Below are positions 2,343-44,011 of a stretch of DNA of 64,000 bases, in pieces (the stretch's first letter is position 1; the number at the start of each line of letters is the position of its first letter). The notes under the pieces were generated by a model. The model saw only the letters and a list, made by a program, of their open reading frames with translations. It ran no database searches and was not told the origin of the DNA. The translations under genes were made by a program, and so were the position numbers. Source of the stretch: Escherichia phage AV119; the sequence record OR352949.1; one strand, 5' to 3'.

Positions 2343-4322
2343 ATGACTTTATTATCTCCGGGCATTGAGCTCAAAGAAACTACGGTTCAAAGCACCGTGG
2401 TTAATAACTCTACTGGTACAGCAGCTTTGGCCGGTAAATTCCAGTGGGGTCCTGCTTTTCAGATTAAACAGGTTACAAACGAAGTAGATTTAGTTAATAC
2501 TTTTGGTCAACCTACAGCTGAAACTGCTGACTATTTTATGTCTGCAATGAATTTCTTACAATATGGAAATGATTTGCGAGTTGTGCGCGCTGTCGATAGA
2601 GATACCGCTAAAAACTCATCTCCGATTGCTGGTAATATTGAATACACAATTTCTACCCCAGGTAGTAACTACGCGGTTGGAGATAAAATCACGGTCAAAT
2701 ATGTTTCAGAAGATGTTGAAACAGAAGGTAAAATTACCGAAGTAGATGCTGATGGAAAAATTAAGAAAATTAATATTCCTACTGCAAAAATTATTGCTAA
2801 AGCTAAAGAAGTTGGCGAATACCCAACATTAGGTTCTAACTGGACTGCAGAAATTTCTTCATCTTCTTCCGGTTTAGCTGCAGTAATAACTCTTGGAAAA
2901 ATTATTACTGATTCCGGTATTTTATTAGCTGAAATCGAGAGCGCTGAAACTGCTATGACAGCAGTTGATTTTCAGGCAAATCTTGAAAAATATGGAATTC
3001 CAGGAGTAGTAGCTCTCTATCCAGGCGAATTAGGCGATAAAATTGAAATTGAAATCGTATCTAAAGCTGACTATGCGAAAGGCGCTTCTGCATTACTGCC
3101 AATTTATCCAGGTGGTGGTACTCGTGCATCTACTGCCAAGGCAGTATTTGGATATGGGCCGCAGACTGACTCACAGTACGCTATTATAGTTCGTCGAAAT
3201 GATGCTATTGTTCAAAGCGTTGTTCTTTCAACTAAGCGTGGTGAAAAAGATATTTACGATAGTAACATCTATATTGATGACTTTTTCGCAAAAGGTGGTT
3301 CAGAATATATTTTCGCAACTGCGCAAAACTGGCCAGAAGGCTTCTCTGGAATTTTAACTCTGTCTGGTGGATTATCATCAAATGCTGAAGTAACAGCAGG
3401 AGATTTGATGGAAGCTTGGGACTTCTTTGCTGACCGCGAATCTGTTGACGTTCAGTTGTTTATTGCGGGTTCTTGTGCCGGTGAATCTCTTGAAACAGCA
3501 TCTACTGTCCAAAAACATGTTGTTTCAATTGGTGATGCTCGTCAAGATTGCTTAGTATTGTGCTCACCTCCGCGTGAAACTGTAGTTGGAATTCCTGTAA
3601 CTCGTGCAGTAGATAATTTAGTTAACTGGAGAACTGCAGCAGGTTCATACACTGATAATAACTTTAATATCAGTTCAACCTACGCAGCAATTGATGGTAA
3701 CTACAAATATCAGTATGACAAATATAATGATGTGAATCGTTGGGTTCCATTAGCAGCTGATATTGCTGGTTTATGCGCAAGAACTGATAACGTATCTCAG
3801 ACTTGGATGTCTCCAGCTGGTTATAATCGTGGCCAGATTCTTAACGTTATTAAACTTGCTATTGAAACTCGCCAAGCTCAGCGCGACCGTTTATACCAAG
3901 AAGCTATTAATCCAGTAACTGGTACAGGTGGCGATGGTTACGTATTGTATGGTGATAAAACAGCTACTTCTGTTCCTTCTCCATTTGATCGTATTAACGT
4001 TCGTCGTCTGTTTAATATGTTGAAAACGAATATCGGACGTAGTTCAAAATATCGTTTGTTCGAATTAAACAACGCGTTTACTCGTTCATCATTCCGCACA
4101 GAAACTGCCCAATACTTACAGGGAATTAAAGCTCTCGGTGGAATTTATGAATATCGTGTAGTTTGCGATACAACAAATAACACTCCGTCAGTAATTGATA
4201 GAAATGAGTTTGTTGCAACATTCTACATCCAACCGGCTCGTAGTATAAATTATATCCAACTTAATTTCGTCGCAACTGCTACTGGTGCAGATTTTGATGA
4301 GTTAACTGGTCTTGCAGGTTAA
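2343..4322 (+). CDS. 18: contractile tail sheath protein gp18
   Basis: 659 aa, same as T4 gp18; SD plus late promoter upstream. Confidence 0.95.
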   Translation: MTLLSPGIELKETTVQSTVVNNSTGTAALAGKFQWGPAFQIKQVTNEVDLVNTFGQPTAETADYFMSAMNFLQYGNDLRVVRAVDRDTAKNSSPIAGNIEYTISTPGSNYAVGDKITVKYVSEDVETEGKITEVDADGKIKKINIPTAKIIAKAKEVGEYPTLGSNWTAEISSSSSGLAAVITLGKIITDSGILLAEIESAETAMTAVDFQANLEKYGIPGVVALYPGELGDKIEIEIVSKADYAKGASALLPIYPGGGTRASTAKAVFGYGPQTDSQYAIIVRRNDAIVQSVVLSTKRGEKDIYDSNIYIDDFFAKGGSEYIFATAQNWPEGFSGILTLSGGLSSNAEVTAGDLMEAWDFFADRESVDVQLFIAGSCAGESLETASTVQKHVVSIGDARQDCLVLCSPPRETVVGIPVTRAVDNLVNWRTAAGSYTDNNFNISSTYAAIDGNYKYQYDKYNDVNRWVPLAADIAGLCARTDNVSQTWMSPAGYNRGQILNVIKLAIETRQAQRDRLYQEAINPVTGTGGDGYVLYGDKTATSVPSPFDRINVRRLFNMLKTNIGRSSKYRLFELNNAFTRSSFRTETAQYLQGIKALGGIYEYRVVCDTTNNTPSVIDRNEFVATFYIQPARSINYIQLNFVATATGADFDELTGLAG

Positions 4323-4967
4323 TTGATTATGGGGCTTCGGCCCCTATTCTCGAGGAAACAAGTGATTATTTCTAAGTTTGTTACAATAAAACCAAGAAAT
4401 CATTCAAAAATGTGGTCGACAATTCTGGGATATAAAGTATCATATCATGATACAGTATCTGTTCCAATAGAATTAATGCCAAAGAATAGTAATAAAATAG
4501 TTGACGCTAAATGTGATTTGTGTGGTATTAAATTTAGTAGAAGCATTCAGCTTTTAAATAGAACACCCACGCATGCATGTAGAAAATGTAGCATTAAACA
4601 AGTTGCTATTAAAAATTCGGAAGTTCAATCTGGAATAAGTAGACCATGGCAAAGAGGTGATAAACATCCTCGATGGACTGGTAAAAGAAAAGAGTTTGCA
4701 TTATATGCTAGTAGAGTTCATTCTATAACTAAGTCAGCTAAAATAAGAAAAATCTGGTCAAAATGGCCAAATGCTGATAAAATAGGAGTGTGTGGTGTAG
4801 AAGGTGCTTACCAGCTTGATCATAAGGTATCTATCAAATATGGATTTGATAATTTAATTCCGCCGGAAATTATAGCAAGCGTAAAAAATTTAGAAATAAT
4901 CACTTGGGAATCTAACCGAGAAAAGTCAAAAAGAAATAGCGTAGATCTTTGGGATTTACTAGAATGA
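4323..4967 (+). CDS. HNH-family endonuclease (mob-like, putative homing endonuclease); true start probably internal (ATG near 4410)
   Basis: N-terminal Cys cluster CDLCG...CRKC; C-terminal HNH-like QLDHKVSIKYGFDN...NLEIITWESNREKSKRN; sits between 18 and 19. Confidence 0.7.
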   Translation: MIMGLRPLFSRKQVIISKFVTIKPRNHSKMWSTILGYKVSYHDTVSVPIELMPKNSNKIVDAKCDLCGIKFSRSIQLLNRTPTHACRKCSIKQVAIKNSEVQSGISRPWQRGDKHPRWTGKRKEFALYASRVHSITKSAKIRKIWSKWPNADKIGVCGVEGAYQLDHKVSIKYGFDNLIPPEIIASVKNLEIITWESNREKSKRNSVDLWDLLE

Positions 4968-4993
4968 TTCTAAAGGCCTGTTTCGGCAGGCCA

Positions 4994-5001
4994 TATAAAT
5001 A
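4994..5001 (+). promoter_or_regulatory. late promoter TATAAATA (distal copy upstream of gene 19)
   Basis: exact TATAAATA right after hairpin 4975-4992. Confidence 0.6.
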
Positions 5002-5052
5002 CACTATATCCTTAATTCTTTAATTCTATATGCCCTAGGTTAAACATAGGGA

Positions 5053-5060
5053 TATAAATA
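5053..5060 (+). promoter_or_regulatory. late promoter TATAAATA (proximal, gene 19)
   Basis: exact TATAAATA 15 nt before ATG 5075. Confidence 0.7.
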
Positions 5061-5074
5061 CTACAGAGGCTAAT

Positions 5075-5566
5075 ATGTTTGTAGATGATGTAACACGAGC
5101 GTTTGAATCTGGTGATTTTGCTCGACCTAACTTATTCCAAGTAGAAATTTCTTATCTTGGACAAAATTTTACATTCCAATGTAAAGCCACTGCTTTACCA
5201 GCTGGTATTGTAGAAAAAATTCCAGTCGGATTTATGAACCGTAAAATTAACGTAGCAGGCGATCGTACATTCGATGACTGGACTGTTACAGTAATGAACG
5301 ATGAAGCTCATGATGCTCGCCAGAAGTTTGTTGATTGGCAAAGCATTGCTGCTGGTCAAGGAAACGAAATTACTGGTGGAAAACCTGCAGAGTATAAAAA
5401 GAGCGCTATTGTTCGTCAATATGCTCGTGATGCTAAAACAGTAACAAAAGAAATTGAAATTAAAGGTCTGTGGCCTACTAACGTGGGTGAACTTCAATTA
5501 GATTGGGATTCAAACAATGAAATCCAAACCTTTGAAGTAACTCTTGCTCTCGATTATTGGGAATAA
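5075..5566 (+). CDS. 19: tail tube protein gp19
   Basis: 163 aa as T4 gp19; TATAAATA 15 nt upstream. Confidence 0.95.
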   Translation: MFVDDVTRAFESGDFARPNLFQVEISYLGQNFTFQCKATALPAGIVEKIPVGFMNRKINVAGDRTFDDWTVTVMNDEAHDARQKFVDWQSIAAGQGNEITGGKPAEYKKSAIVRQYARDAKTVTKEIEIKGLWPTNVGELQLDWDSNNEIQTFEVTLALDYWE

Positions 5567-5598
5567 AATGAATGGGGAGAAATCCCCATCCTGCTTAA

Positions 5599-7223
<1,625 letters not shown>

Positions 7224-15792: not shown

Positions 15793-16410
15793 ATGTACCA
15801 CTTTGTATATGAAACAACAAATCTAATAAATGGTAAAAAGTATATAGGAAAACACTCTACTGATGACTTGAATGATGGTTACCTTGGTTCCGGTAAGGCA
15901 ATTCAGCAGGCTATAAAGAAATATGGTGAAAACAATTTCTCTAGAACAATACTAAAAGAGTTTAAAACTTCCGAAGAAGCGTACATGTATGAAGAAGAAA
16001 TTATAACTCCTGAAATAATAAAAAGCAAAAATTATTATAATATGAAACCTGGCGGAATTGGTGGAATTGTTATGACTACAGAGGTTATAGCAAAGATGAA
16101 AGAATCTTCCGCTAAGAGATTTGAAAACTCACCGGGCACGGTATTAGGTACAACTTGTTACACTAATGGAACTAAAAATATTTTTATTAAGCCTGGAGAA
16201 CTTGTTCCAGAAGGATTTGTAAAAGGGATGGTTCATCCTAATAGAAAGTCCAGAAAAGGATGTAAAGTCAAACCGACTACCACAGGAACTTTTTGGGTCA
16301 ATAATGGTGCAATAAATAAATTAATACAACCAGACGGTATTATTCCCGACGGATTTATTAAAGGTCGTCTCATGAAAAGAGATTCTAAAGGCAAATTTAG
16401 TAAGGCATAA
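15793..16410 (+). CDS. segE: GIY-YIG homing endonuclease SegE-like
   Basis: 205 aa; GIY-YIG motif YHFVYETTN...KKYIGKH; between inh and uvsW as T4 segE. Confidence 0.85.
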   Translation: MYHFVYETTNLINGKKYIGKHSTDDLNDGYLGSGKAIQQAIKKYGENNFSRTILKEFKTSEEAYMYEEEIITPEIIKSKNYYNMKPGGIGGIVMTTEVIAKMKESSAKRFENSPGTVLGTTCYTNGTKNIFIKPGELVPEGFVKGMVHPNRKSRKGCKVKPTTTGTFWVNNGAINKLIQPDGIIPDGFIKGRLMKRDSKGKFSKA

Positions 16411-16412
16411 TT

Positions 16413-17921
16413 ATGGATATTAAAGTACATTTTCACGACTTCAGTCATGTACGCATCGATTGTGAAGAGAGCACGTTCCACGAATTAAGAGATTTCTTTT
16501 CGTTTGAGGCCGATGGATATAGATTTAACCCTCGCTTCAGATATGGCAACTGGGATGGACGAATCCGTCTTTTAGATTATAATCGTCTTCTTCCATTCGG
16601 CTTAGTCGGGCAAATTAAAAAGTTCTGTGATAACTTTGGCTATAAAGCCTGGATTGACCCGCAAATTAACGAAAAAGAAGAATTATCAAGAAAAGATTTT
16701 GATGAATGGCTTTCTAAATTAGAAATCTATTCAGGAAATAAAAGAATTGAACCGCATTGGTATCAAAAAGATGCAGTGTTCGAAGGATTAGTTAATCGTC
16801 GTAGAATTCTTAATCTTCCAACATCCGCTGGTAAATCGTTAATTCAAGCTTTGCTTGCGCGATATTATTTGGAAAATTATGAAGGTAAAATTCTTATCAT
16901 TGTTCCAACAACTGCTCTAACAACTCAGATGGCTGATGACTTCGTTGACTATCGTTTATTCAGTCATGCAATGATAAAGAAAATTGGTGGCGGAGCATCA
17001 AAAGATGATAAATATAAAAATGATGCACCAGTCGTTGTTGGTACATGGCAAACTGTAGTAAAACAACCGAAAGAATGGTTCTCACAGTTTGGAATGATGA
17101 TGAATGATGAATGCCATCTTGCTACAGGAAAAAGTATTTCATCTATCATATCAGGTTTAAATAACTGCATGTTCAAATTTGGTCTATCTGGTTCATTACG
17201 TGATGGCAAAGCCAATATCATGCAGTATGTTGGAATGTTTGGTGAAATATTTAAGCCAGTAACGACTTCTAAGTTAATGGAAGATGGACAAGTAACTGAG
17301 CTAAAAATTAATAGTATTTTTCTTCGCTATCCCGATGAGTTCACTACTAAATTAAAGGGAAAAACTTATCAAGAAGAAATAAAAATTATTACGGGGCTTA
17401 GTAAAAGAAATAAATGGATCGCTAAATTGGCTATTAAGCTTGCACAAAAAGATGAAAACGCTTTTGTCATGTTTAAACATGTATCGCATGGTAAAGCTAT
17501 TTTCGATTTAATTAAAAATGAATACGATAAAGTTTATTACGTATCAGGGGAAGTTGATACCGAAACCCGCAATATAATGAAAACCTTAGCTGAAAATGGT
17601 AAAGGAATAATTATAGTAGCTAGTTATGGTGTATTTTCTACTGGTATTTCAGTTAAAAATCTGCATCACGTTGTTTTAGCGCACGGTGTTAAATCAAAAA
17701 TCATTGTATTACAAACAATCGGTCGTGTATTACGTAAGCATGGTTCTAAAACAATCGCAACAGTCTGGGACCTCATAGATGACTGTGGTGTCAAGCCAAA
17801 ATCTGCTAATACTAAAAAGAAATATGTTCACTTGAACTATCTTTTAAAACACGGCATTGATCGTATTCAGCGCTACGCAGATGAAAAATTTAATTACGTA
17901 ATGAAAACAGTTAATTTATAA
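16413..17921 (+). CDS. uvsW: UvsW SF2 DNA helicase
   Basis: 502 aa; Walker A PTSAGKS, DECH box. Confidence 0.92.
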   Translation: MDIKVHFHDFSHVRIDCEESTFHELRDFFSFEADGYRFNPRFRYGNWDGRIRLLDYNRLLPFGLVGQIKKFCDNFGYKAWIDPQINEKEELSRKDFDEWLSKLEIYSGNKRIEPHWYQKDAVFEGLVNRRRILNLPTSAGKSLIQALLARYYLENYEGKILIIVPTTALTTQMADDFVDYRLFSHAMIKKIGGGASKDDKYKNDAPVVVGTWQTVVKQPKEWFSQFGMMMNDECHLATGKSISSIISGLNNCMFKFGLSGSLRDGKANIMQYVGMFGEIFKPVTTSKLMEDGQVTELKINSIFLRYPDEFTTKLKGKTYQEEIKIITGLSKRNKWIAKLAIKLAQKDENAFVMFKHVSHGKAIFDLIKNEYDKVYYVSGEVDTETRNIMKTLAENGKGIIIVASYGVFSTGISVKNLHHVVLAHGVKSKIIVLQTIGRVLRKHGSKTIATVWDLIDDCGVKPKSANTKKKYVHLNYLLKHGIDRIQRYADEKFNYVMKTVNL

Positions 17922-41742: not shown

Positions 41743-42245
41743 TTAAAAATATTTTTTAAAACTCATCATAACTTTATCATCAACATCATTATCAATCTGT
41801 GCTACAAGGTAAGATGACAGTTCTACTTCTTGCGGTGCAGATTGAACATTATCAGAATTAAGATATTCACGAATCCAAGGATACGGATGTTTAACCGGAG
41901 CATCGGTAATTGGGCATGGAAGACCACATTGTTTCATACGAGATACAGTTAAGTAATCAATAAAGCTCCACATGCTATTTGTATTTAATCCAGGAACATC
42001 GCCGTCTTTAAATAAATGAACTGCCCAATCTTTTTCTTGGCGGTTAACTTCCATGAAAATATCAACTGCTTCTTGTTCACACTCTTGAGCAATTTTAACC
42101 CATTCATCGCCATCAGTACCGGATTGAAGTTGACGAATAATATATTGAGTGCCTTTAAGGTGAAGCTGCTCATCACGTGCAATGAACTTCATAATCTTGG
42201 CATTACCTTCCATGATTTCCATGTTCTTATGGAAGTTAAAGGTAC
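41743..42245 (-). CDS. nrdB: ribonucleotide reductase small subunit NrdB, exon 2
   Basis: splice junction completes Cys codon (t + gt) giving SFAC-TFNFHKNMEIMEGNAK...RDEQLH, matching class Ia R2 spacing. Confidence 0.85.
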
Positions 42246-42380: not shown

Positions 42381-43190
42381 CTAGTCGTTGAACCTTGTTT
42401 TGCAATTGTCGCCGTGCCATCGTTTATATGTTGATGGTGATAAATCTTTCTTACCACAATATGGACAATTCAATTGAATTCTATTTGGATTTAATTTACA
42501 TCTGTCATTATGTTTTAGATAAAATCCAGGACCTTTACCAATGTGACCACAGAAATCACATGTGATTTCTTTTTGTGCAGGATGGGTCCCGTTCTTAACC
42601 ATTTCTAATGTTTTTGCTGATGTTCTTTTCTTATGGTCTTCTGATAAGAAATGATGTGAACCGTCATTTACCCGTTTTGATTGAGTTTCTGACTGCATTT
42701 TACCACCGCAAAATACATGAGTACCTTCTTTTATAGCTGCAATATTGCGTTCTTTAACTTTTGCAATATGCTCAGCTTGTTGAAAATTATGTATACCTAA
42801 TGCAACTCTATTTAAATTAGATTTACGCTGTATTTCACCATCTAAAAGATGAAATGTACCATTTTCTATCTTAGATTTAATAGAGGCAATATTTTTAGCT
42901 CGTACTTCAGGGATATTAAAAATCTGGATTTCTCTAGATTTTGCGGCTTTAGAAGCTAATTCAGAAATTTCTTCAGGAGAATATTTCATTCTAAGCTTTA
43001 TAGCATGACAAGCCTGATAATCTTTTTGAGCTAAATGTATATCATAATGTTCCTGTATAGAAAGGCACATCAAATTATCTAAATCATTATTTTCACGGTT
43101 ACCGTCTTTATGATGGATTTCGTATGTTCTTCCATCAGAATCTTTAGGTATAGGTCCGTTAGCATCTATCCAAATTTTTCTATAGTTCAA
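42381..43190 (-). CDS. intron-encoded HNH homing endonuclease (I-TevIII-like, 269 aa)
   Basis: inside intron; EIHHKDGNRENNDLDNL HNH motif; TATAAATA 28 nt upstream. Confidence 0.85.
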   Translation of the reverse strand: MNYRKIWIDANGPIPKDSDGRTYEIHHKDGNRENNDLDNLMCLSIQEHYDIHLAQKDYQACHAIKLRMKYSPEEISELASKAAKSREIQIFNIPEVRAKNIASIKSKIENGTFHLLDGEIQRKSNLNRVALGIHNFQQAEHIAKVKERNIAAIKEGTHVFCGGKMQSETQSKRVNDGSHHFLSEDHKKRTSAKTLEMVKNGTHPAQKEITCDFCGHIGKGPGFYLKHNDRCKLNPNRIQLNCPYCGKKDLSPSTYKRWHGDNCKTRFND

Positions 43191-43225: not shown

Positions 43226-43335
43226 TTATACTAATTAAAGGTGCAAGCAAAACCTTGGCTGCTAGTTTTCCTATAAAGGACTTTCCAGCAATTAAAGGAG
43301 TTTTCGATAAACGTTACCGTTTAAAGGCGCATTTT

Positions 43336-44011
43336 ACGCAAAAGATACATAAAAACGAATAGCTTCCAATGCGTTGATTACATGGAGGCAAAGGTAAAGA
43401 GATTTCATTAAAGCACGTTTAGCTTCGGCTTCTTGTTTAATAGCTCGGTTTAAACGAAAGACGGCATCAGGAGATTCTTTAGCTAGTTCTACAAATTCTT
43501 TAGCATTTTCCCATTCACGGGTTTTAATCAGAACATCATCATAATAACGTCCAATGGATTCAGCACGTTTCATAATAGCTTCATCTAATACAATTTCATC
43601 AAATACCTTCGATGGATCAGTATAAAGATTTCGCATGATATGAGTATATGAACGACTGTGAATAGTTTCACTAAAAGTCCATGTAGCAACCCATGTATCA
43701 AGGCTTGGGTCTGAAATTAATGGCATAAGTACAGCAGACGGCGCACGACCTTGAATACTATCAAGTAATGATTGATACTTCAGATTATTAGTAAAAATAT
43801 TTTGTTGATACTGAGGAAGCTTATTAAATTGAGTAGCATCCATCATTAAGTTTACTTCTTCAGGACGCCAGAAAAATGACAACTGCTTTTCGGTTAAATC
43901 TTCAAAAACTTTATGACGTTGAATATCATAACGCGCAATACCAAGACCTGAACCAAAAAACATAGGTTCTTTTAAAACATCAACTGGATTTGTATTAAAA
44001 ACTGTGCTCAT
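43336..44011 (-). CDS. nrdB: ribonucleotide reductase small subunit NrdB, exon 1
   Basis: 225 codons ending ...LEAIRFYVSFA; R2 signature. Confidence 0.9.

Follow-up and report, generated by a model that had tools for sequence, protein, structure and literature searches.

Between the tail sheath gene 18 and the tail tube gene 19 of Escherichia phage AV119 lies an additional open reading frame (ORF), ORF19.1, that some T-even phages carry and others lack. We examined it in a 64,000-nucleotide (nt) stretch of the sequence record OR352949.1, referred to here as the window; positions are counted from its first letter, and features lie on the + strand unless stated otherwise. The gene order is 17 (terminase), 18 (sheath, 2343 to 4322), the additional ORF, 19 (tube, 5075 to 5566), and 20 (portal), and the spacer between the end of gene 18 at 4322 and the start of gene 19 at 5075 measures 752 base pairs (bp). 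In T4 the corresponding spacer is 116 bp long, in agreement with a first-pass annotation of this DNA that had described it as short. The additional length is contributed by an optional segment at 4323 to 4966, which we interpret, with a probability of roughly 0.6, as a free-standing homing endonuclease gene cassette carrying the T6-type allele of ORF19.1. The region from 3800 to 5600 is 100% identical to that of Escherichia phage AV120 (OR352950.1), a Tequatrovirus from pig waste, and 98 to 99.7% identical to that of many other relatives, including T6.

Boundaries and coding content of the optional cassette

The boundaries of the cassette were read from an alignment of AV120, T6, and T4, then of RB3 and five Tequatrovirus genomes from IMG/VR. 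At 4323 to 4966, 644 bp stand in place of the 8-bp filler TACGGTGC, with a left edge that is ambiguous by one shared T; the cassette of RB3 is 655 bp long. The edges are sharp and fall at the same place in all carriers aligned (T6, RB3, and AV120), and the flanks are identical. The empty site is also uniform, with the TACGGTGC filler present in all six examples (T4 and five other phages) within an identical 116-bp spacer. Both the sheath gene and the tube gene are intact on either side of the cassette, which lies outside any intron or intein. The first-pass annotation had described an insertion between two essential late genes, and an optional segment of about 640 bp, present in T6 and absent from T4 and T2, is what we find there; ORF19.1 is accordingly not universal among T-even phages.

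Counted from its first TTG, the frame is open from 4323 to 4967. The likely start of ORF19.1 is the GTG at 4362 to 4364, which is preceded by a Shine-Dalgarno sequence, GAGG, at 4352 to 4355, as annotated in AV120 and T6. From this start the gene (4362 to 4967) encodes gp19.1, a protein of 201 amino acids with an N-terminal four-Cys zinc finger and a C-terminal His-Me/HNH-like domain. The protein is 99.5% identical to that of T6 ORF19.1, which has been on record in GenBank under this name since the 1990s, and the two genes share their GTG start and their junctions, with no structural difference between them. The name gp19.1 is used in the annotations of AV120, VR7, and DK-13. GenBank product names for the ORF conflict, ranging over hypothetical protein, HNH endonuclease, homing endonuclease, type II restriction endonuclease, holin, and putative head morphogenesis protein, and in the AV120 record the neighboring tail tube gene is labeled "tail fibers protein." ORF19.1 matches PHROG 5104 (E = 5e-82), a family of "unknown function," and a search of the window for paralogues of ORF19.1 found none. 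The AV120 and T6 genes differ at 8 codons synonymously and at 1 codon non-synonymously, and in 232 of the 238 records with a homologue the tblastn matches cover at least 80% of the protein. This mostly synonymous change, together with near-complete coverage, indicates that the gene is maintained by purifying selection.

Patchy distribution and site fidelity

Carriers were scored with a junction probe composed of 100 nt of gene 18 and 30 nt of the insert, a carrier being defined by full coverage. The probe was fully covered in 117 records, and only its gene 18 part was matched in others, including T2, RB32, and RB33. Since about 501 records encode a gp19 that is at least 95% identical, the cassette is carried by roughly 23% of Tequatrovirus records. 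T6, RB3, and PST are carriers, and T4, T2, RB32, and RB33 are non-carriers; among close relatives, the cassette is a presence/absence polymorphism with sharp boundaries. Across all phages, a homologue of the protein is found in 238 records, compared with 2422 records that have a homologue of gp19.

All genomes inspected but one have the homologue immediately downstream of the sheath gene. This is the arrangement in the Gaprivervirus phages VR7 and DK-13, Krischvirus phage phiS, the Dhakavirus phages vB_EcoM_005 and Bp7, Klebsiella phage Roth21, Shewanella phage Thanatos-2, Aeromonas phage AS-zj, and two metagenomic T4-like contigs, and also in Sinorhizobium phage phiM12, where the gene that follows is not gp19. 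Nine or more distant T4-type lineages thus have homologues directly after the sheath gene. Among distant relatives, the sheath stop codon and the start of the ORF lie within 1 to 3 bases of each other, an arrangement consistent with co-expression of the ORF and gene 18. A profile built from 42 homologues shows how large the family is, with 6,928 cluster representatives (50% identity, metagenomes) retrieved at E <= 1e-3, and a second database yielded 537 family proteins, none of which has a Pfam domain on the nuclease part.

The exception is a metagenomic contig (L031) in which an ORF19.1-family gene occupies the tube-portal spacer while a SegE-type GIY-YIG gene, confirmed by Pfam, occupies the sheath-tube slot. 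In Bp7 (L030, 4269 to 4850), a Seg-like gene with weak matches to SegE_GIY-YIG and NUMOD3 lies between the tube and portal genes. The presence of Seg-type genes in the spacers of L031 and Bp7 identifies these spacers as landing sites of known homing endonucleases.

Some further features of these genomes were seen in passing. The two genes of L031 lie at 2565 to 3374 and 4001 to 4630, and the end of the ORF19.1-family gene overlaps the start of the portal gene by 14 nt; two unrelated endonuclease families there occupy adjacent spacers of one tail/portal module. The Bp7 tube-portal gene is annotated as "HNH endonuclease," which is probably a misnomer, and the annotation splits the Bp7 portal gene in two. 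For the tube-portal ORF of vB_EcoM_005 (L027, 3267 to 3848), the annotation notes similarity to a hypothetical protein of Bp7. Another metagenomic T4-like contig (L033, 5388 to 7550) has a portal (gp20) intein with a degenerate-looking HNH_3 segment, and an ORF19.1-family gene in its sheath-tube spacer.

Two alleles and the gene 18 haplotype

Tequatrovirus phages carry two alleles of ORF19.1 at this one site, a T6 type and an RB3 type, whose N-terminal halves are swapped. For the T6-type allele, 73 records match the insert at the DNA level over at least 80% of its length. The two proteins are 50% identical overall; conservation is poor over the first ~125 residues, and the last ~75 are almost the same. 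At the DNA level, identity is about 97% over the left junction and 47 to 77% across 4373 to 4762 (about 390 bp), and after 4762 it is mostly 83 to 100%, with one stretch at 63%. It is conceivable that these alleles are competitors with different target specificities, and that ORF19.1 represents a large His-Me homing clade, unannotated in Pfam, that tracks the sheath 3' end; we offer this proposal tentatively and doubt it more than we believe it. If it is true, the T6/RB3 pair would be a natural case of a homing endonuclease re-targeted by domain exchange.

The cassette may also be associated with a particular form of the end of gene 18. Within the last 100 nt of the gene, a synonymous-rich patch of divergence covers the codons R-S-I-N-Y-I-Q/T-L-N-F-V at 4239 to 4271, where the window differs from T4 at 12 of 33 nt with a single amino-acid change. 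Over these last 100 nt the window is at least 95.5% identical to other T6-type carriers. Its exact 100-nt haplotype occurs in none of the empty-site records, for which the best identity is 97% and most values fall between 85 and 93%. The sequence 3' of the cassette hardly varies and is unlinked to cassette state. The patch at 4239 to 4271 is no more than suggestive as a candidate target or co-conversion region, and could reflect either short co-conversion tracts or variation in the target site.

A zinc finger and a putative His-Me nuclease core

Domain conservation was assessed in an alignment of 42 full-length homologues and in 20 divergent C-domain sequences. The zinc-finger region, CxxC-x18-CxxC, is encoded at 4494 to 4601; among the 42 homologues, C51, C54, and C73 are invariant and C76 is kept in at least 90%. 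This part of the protein gave weak matches of several kinds: the N-domain to a PDB zinc ribbon, that of mS66 (E = 0.0055), 15 of the 42 homologues to the treble-clef family DUF4379 in Pfam, and the finger region to PHROGs labeled "homing endonuclease" and "HNH endonuclease." The four-Cys finger is presumed to be a DNA-binding module.

The remaining conserved residues in the 42 homologues are G99, W105, Q151, D153, H154, S157, G161, N176, L177, W182, N185, R186, and K188. A putative beta-beta-alpha-metal nuclease core is encoded at 4791 to 4931: strand 1 closes with D153-H154, strand 2 comes just after N176, and the helix contains N185, R186, and K188. D153, H154, N176, and N185 are invariant in both the full-length and the divergent sequences, and the D-H, N-L, W, N, and K columns are invariant across the 20 divergent C-domains. 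AlphaFold modeled the full protein with a mean predicted local distance difference test score (pLDDT) of 90 and a predicted template modeling score (pTM) of 0.53 for the two domains, and the C-domain alone with a pLDDT of 86 and a pTM of 0.75. In the model, D153-H154 end strand 150-154, N176 lies ahead of strand 177-181, and N185 lies in helix 182-188, with two extra short helices between the strands of the putative core. An Asp-His at the end of a strand, an Asn before the second strand, and an Asn in the helix make up the active-site arrangement of HNH nucleases, and D153, H154, N176, and N185 reproduce this catalytic residue pattern on a strand-strand-helix.

Foldseek searches, run with the full model and separately with the C-domain, placed Cas9 HNH domains and 4h9d at the top, at E values of 0.2 to 0.6 and template modeling scores of about 0.45, which are not significant. 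PHROG 1035 ("endonuclease VII") was matched by 11 of the 20 divergent C-domains (best E = 2e-6) and PHROG 6050 ("HNH endonuclease") by 6 of the 20 (best E = 2e-5); other divergent C-domains match six further HNH PHROGs, and the alignments span most of the domain. The window protein itself gave no match to PHROG 1035 or PHROG 6050. One homologue bears the JGI name McrA. As far as sequence and predicted fold can tell, ORF19.1 probably encodes a divergent His-Me-finger nuclease with a zinc-finger DNA-binding module; the nuclease part of this assignment draws on the motif, marginal fold matches, and weak PHROG matches, and is weakened to that extent.

Comparison with known phage endonucleases

Free-standing homing endonucleases of T-even phages nick or cut an allele that lacks their gene and spread by recombination repair (PMC2988022, PMC2790892). 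Like these genes, ORF19.1 is a small intergenic ORF between conserved genes that is optional among close relatives, and like MobA-E, Hef, and I-TevIII, it joins a zinc finger to a His-Me nuclease, which in this case is putative. Unlike the Mob/I-TevIII type, it has no match to Pfam HNH_3, whereas the I-TevIII-type gene of the window matches that family at E = 6e-13. The domain order is also reversed, the nuclease being C-terminal in ORF19.1 and N-terminal in the window's I-TevIII-type protein, and the predicted inter-strand loop of ORF19.1, with its two extra short helices, is a further difference from the Mob/I-TevIII type. Membership of ORF19.1 in HNH_3 was considered and rejected for want of a profile match and because hhalign gave a probability of 0.7% between the ORF19.1 profile and the I-TevIII-type protein. 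The same method found no relation of the ORF19.1 profile to the Bp7 gene in the 19-20 spacer or to the degenerate HNH_3 segment of the intein.

The DHHRN family, named for the motif of F-CphI and T4 endonuclease VII, is characterized by a DHDH flanked by CX2-4C and CX2C and by a conserved R and N (PMC6083498). ORF19.1 resembles F-CphI in having a putative C-terminal His-Me catalytic domain in a small free-standing phage protein, and the weak matches of divergent C-domains to PHROG 1035 are a likeness to endonuclease VII. Unlike DHHRN proteins, however, ORF19.1 has LDHKVS, without a second His or Cys pairs flanking the core, and its four Cys residues lie in a separate N-terminal domain. Assignment to the DHHRN family was rejected on account of the missing DHDH and flanking CxxC pairs. 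The Seg-type (SegE-like) GIY-YIG genes occupy slots of the kind that ORF19.1 occupies, the sheath-tube spacer in L031 and the tube-portal spacer in Bp7, but the GIY-YIG catalytic fold is unrelated and the nuclease domain of Seg proteins is N-terminal.

Competing interpretations of ORF19.1

Several observations weigh against reading ORF19.1 as a homing endonuclease gene. The curated HNH profiles (PF01844, PF13392, PF13395, and PF14279) went unmatched, the only trace being a single match to HNH_4 at E = 0.078. The first-pass annotation had called a zinc-finger plus HNH ORF and had named a search with Pfam HNH hidden Markov models (HMMs) as its check; that search returned no match for the protein, the 42 homologues, or 10 longer relatives, so that of the original description the invariant CxxC...CxxC finger and an HNH-like D-H/N/N core stand and a curated HNH match does not. 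An NCBIfam search was negative as well, PDB sequence profile searches with the full-length and C-domain alignments returned zinc ribbons and noise but no nuclease, and the hhalign comparison with the I-TevIII-type protein was as poor as described above. Regarding the flank, the 3' end of gene 18 proved not to be the only peak of divergence, as an equal one lies in the middle of the gene at 2779 to 2878, and two empty-site phages carry a nearly identical 4239 to 4271 patch. In another lineage (L017-L019), where one of three phages has a homologue that is 33% identical, the junctions are unlike those at the AV120/T6/T4 site. Literature searches on T-even ORF19.1/gp19.1 found no experimental paper on gp19.1, their matches being irrelevant (Candida orf19 genes and SPP1 gp19.1), and ORF19.1 goes unmentioned in 2010 reviews of T4-related genomes and mobile elements. 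Finally, the constant position after the sheath gene in very distant phages also fits an old resident gene that has often been lost.

This last possibility can be worked out as an alternative in which ORF19.1 is an old accessory gene of the tail module that does not home, encodes a nuclease or DNA-binding protein serving the phage, for example in excluding competing phages or in DNA processing, and has been deleted in many lineages, including those of T4 and T2. Its constant position from Tequatrovirus to Sinorhizobium phage phiM12, the purifying selection on a gene that is nearly always intact, and the start that abuts the sheath stop in some phages, suggesting co-expression, are all as this alternative would have them, and the identical 8-bp filler in all empty Tequatrovirus sites would be explained by a single deletion allele spread by recombination. 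It has more difficulty with the fact that presence differs among Tequatrovirus genomes that are about 96 to 98% identical in the flanks and that the gene is missing from about 90% of phages with gp19. Neither the two alleles with swapped N-terminal halves at one site nor the family member in the tube-portal spacer of a contig whose sheath-tube slot is held by a GIY-YIG homing endonuclease is readily accommodated by a resident gene. We regard this explanation as unlikely, although it deserves to be taken seriously.

The evidence on the protein itself bears on a second alternative, that ORF19.1 is a zinc-finger nucleic-acid-binding regulator, for instance of late tail-gene mRNA, whose C-domain merely resembles HNH and has no nuclease function. 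The failure of every curated HNH HMM, the marginal fold matches, and the limitation of sequence-level PDB matches to zinc ribbons are what a regulator would be expected to give. On the other hand, the invariant residues are exactly the HNH catalytic set (the D-H at the strand end, the N, and the helix N) and are kept in hundreds of divergent sequences, PHROGs for endonuclease VII and HNH enzymes are repeatedly matched by divergent members along the full length of the domain, and HNH enzymes rank first in both independent fold searches. A purely regulatory role therefore seems improbable to us.

Late promoters and expression signals around the cassette

The ancestral 18-19 spacer is preserved downstream of the cassette at 4967 to 5074, with 100% identity to T4 and the other empty-site phages. 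It contains a hairpin, GGCCTG-TTTCGG-CAGGCC, at 4975 to 4992, two exact TATAAATA late promoter boxes at 4994 to 5001 and 5053 to 5060 that are 59 bp apart and 3' of the ORF, a second small inverted repeat at 5033 to 5051, and the gene 19 Shine-Dalgarno sequence, GAGG, at 5066 to 5069; the ORF, the hairpin, and the two boxes all lie where the first-pass annotation had placed them. The TATAAATA octamer occurs 21 times in the window, compared with 8.9 +/- 3.1 in shuffled sequences, and precedes genes 18 (2307), 19, and 20 (5614). For T4 late promoters, boxes ahead of genes such as 18, 19, and 20 are expected, and the enrichment of the octamer and its placement ahead of these genes identify real late-promoter-type sites.

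The hairpin and both TATAAATA boxes are found base for base in T4 and in five other empty-site phages. The boxes occur in uninterrupted spacers and are therefore older than the insertion, and since the insertion lies upstream of both, gene 19 never lost its promoter. The hairpin and the two promoters (4975 to 5060) are ancestral and are predicted to drive gene 19 with or without the cassette. The paired hairpin/late promoter units 5' of gene 19 are native T4 architecture and not scars of insertion. The suggestion of the first-pass annotation that the second promoter may restore gene 19 expression, and with it a scenario prompted by the two exact boxes 59 bp apart downstream of the ORF, in which a recent endonuclease insertion severed gene 19 from its promoter and the second box was gained or duplicated as a repair, is refuted, given that the whole arrangement is unchanged in six phages with an empty site and lies downstream of the insert.

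Each of the two boxes before gene 19 (4975 to 5060) comes straight after a small inverted repeat, which is followed by an A and then TATAAATAC, and the gene 20 box (5614, in the region from 5569 to 5621) is likewise preceded by hairpins (GGGGAGAAATCCCC and CTGCTTAAAGCAG). A unit of a stem-loop followed by a late promoter appears to be standard in the 18-20 module, with fold energies that are not significant compared with shuffled sequences; for the spacer elements, the stability of the RNA folds gave z values of about -1.1 to -1.5.

The cassette has no late promoter octamer of its own, as no TATAAATA occurs between 2307 and 4994. At its left end, directly after the gene 18 stop, is a stem-loop that the first-pass annotation overlooked, GGGGC-UUCG-GCCCC (GGGGCTTCGGCCCC; the GGGGCUUCGGCCCC hairpin) at 4331 to 4344, which is supported by sequence and RNA folding and is kept in T6 and RB3. 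It likely stabilizes the mRNA 3' end or acts as a partial terminator, holding down read-through into the putative nuclease ORF. The stem-loop has no following T-run and so went uncalled in a scan for sigma-70 promoters and terminators, which called zero terminators and found 7 promoter-like sites, a count no better than the 4.7 in shuffled sequences. A further sequence, TATAAATT at 4244 to 4251, differs by one base from the late promoter octamer, and the start of ORF19.1 follows 118 nt downstream of it. It is created by the gene 18 haplotype of cassette carriers and two empty-site phages and is missing from T4-type haplotypes, and it might act as a weak late promoter proper to ORF19.1.

Other homing-type genes in the window

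Two further genes of this kind were noticed elsewhere in the window. On the - strand at 42381 to 43190, an ORF of 269 amino acids with a match to HNH_3 (E = 6e-13) splits nrdB into pieces at 41743 to 42213 and 43334 to 44011, and it has the appearance of a complete intron endonuclease of the I-TevIII type, like the one in RB3. The I-TevIII of T4 is defunct (PMC2790892). On the + strand at 15793 to 16410, between inh and an annotated DNA helicase gene (16413 to 17921), lies a free-standing SegE_GIY-YIG gene of 205 amino acids (E = 3e-9), which is a second optional gene of predicted homing type in the window.

Discussion

For ORF19.1 we infer a nuclease activity, a target site, homing, and a route of expression, and these would fit together in the following way. 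Late transcripts that begin at the gene 18 promoter (TATAAATA at 2307) would run on through the cassette's own GGGGCUUCGGCCCC hairpin into the ORF, and the GTG-initiated translation would be weak. The N-terminal zinc finger would read the DNA and the C-terminal His-Me-like domain would nick or cut it. In a mixed infection with a relative that has an empty spacer of the T4/T2 type, the enzyme would nick or cut the genome of that relative near the end of gene 18, and T4-type recombination-dependent repair, with the carrier genome as template, would then copy over the cassette together with a short flank. By this process the cassette would spread, dragging the 3' end of gene 18 along with it.

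An element of this kind is familiar in T-even phages, and the ORF itself has been in GenBank for three decades. Two aspects of our analysis are mildly new. One is the existence of a large family, invisible to Pfam and NCBIfam, that is faithful to the sheath 3' end across the T4 superfamily, and the other is the presence of two domain-swapped ORF19.1 alleles in Tequatrovirus. For annotation, the conflicting product names of ORF19.1, and those of its neighbors labeled as tail fibers, can be replaced by a single consistent label.

When T-even phages co-infect a cell, free-standing homing endonucleases shape the outcome of competition between alleles of essential genes, and they create boundaries in mosaic genomes. 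If gp19.1 is active, it would represent a catalytic family that domain libraries have missed, and Pfam-based surveys would undercount such genes. The T6 and RB3 alleles would then offer a natural pair for studying the exchange of DNA-binding modules on a fixed nuclease core. An active gp19.1 would also explain local marker bias near genes 18 and 19 in crosses of T6 with T4 or T2.

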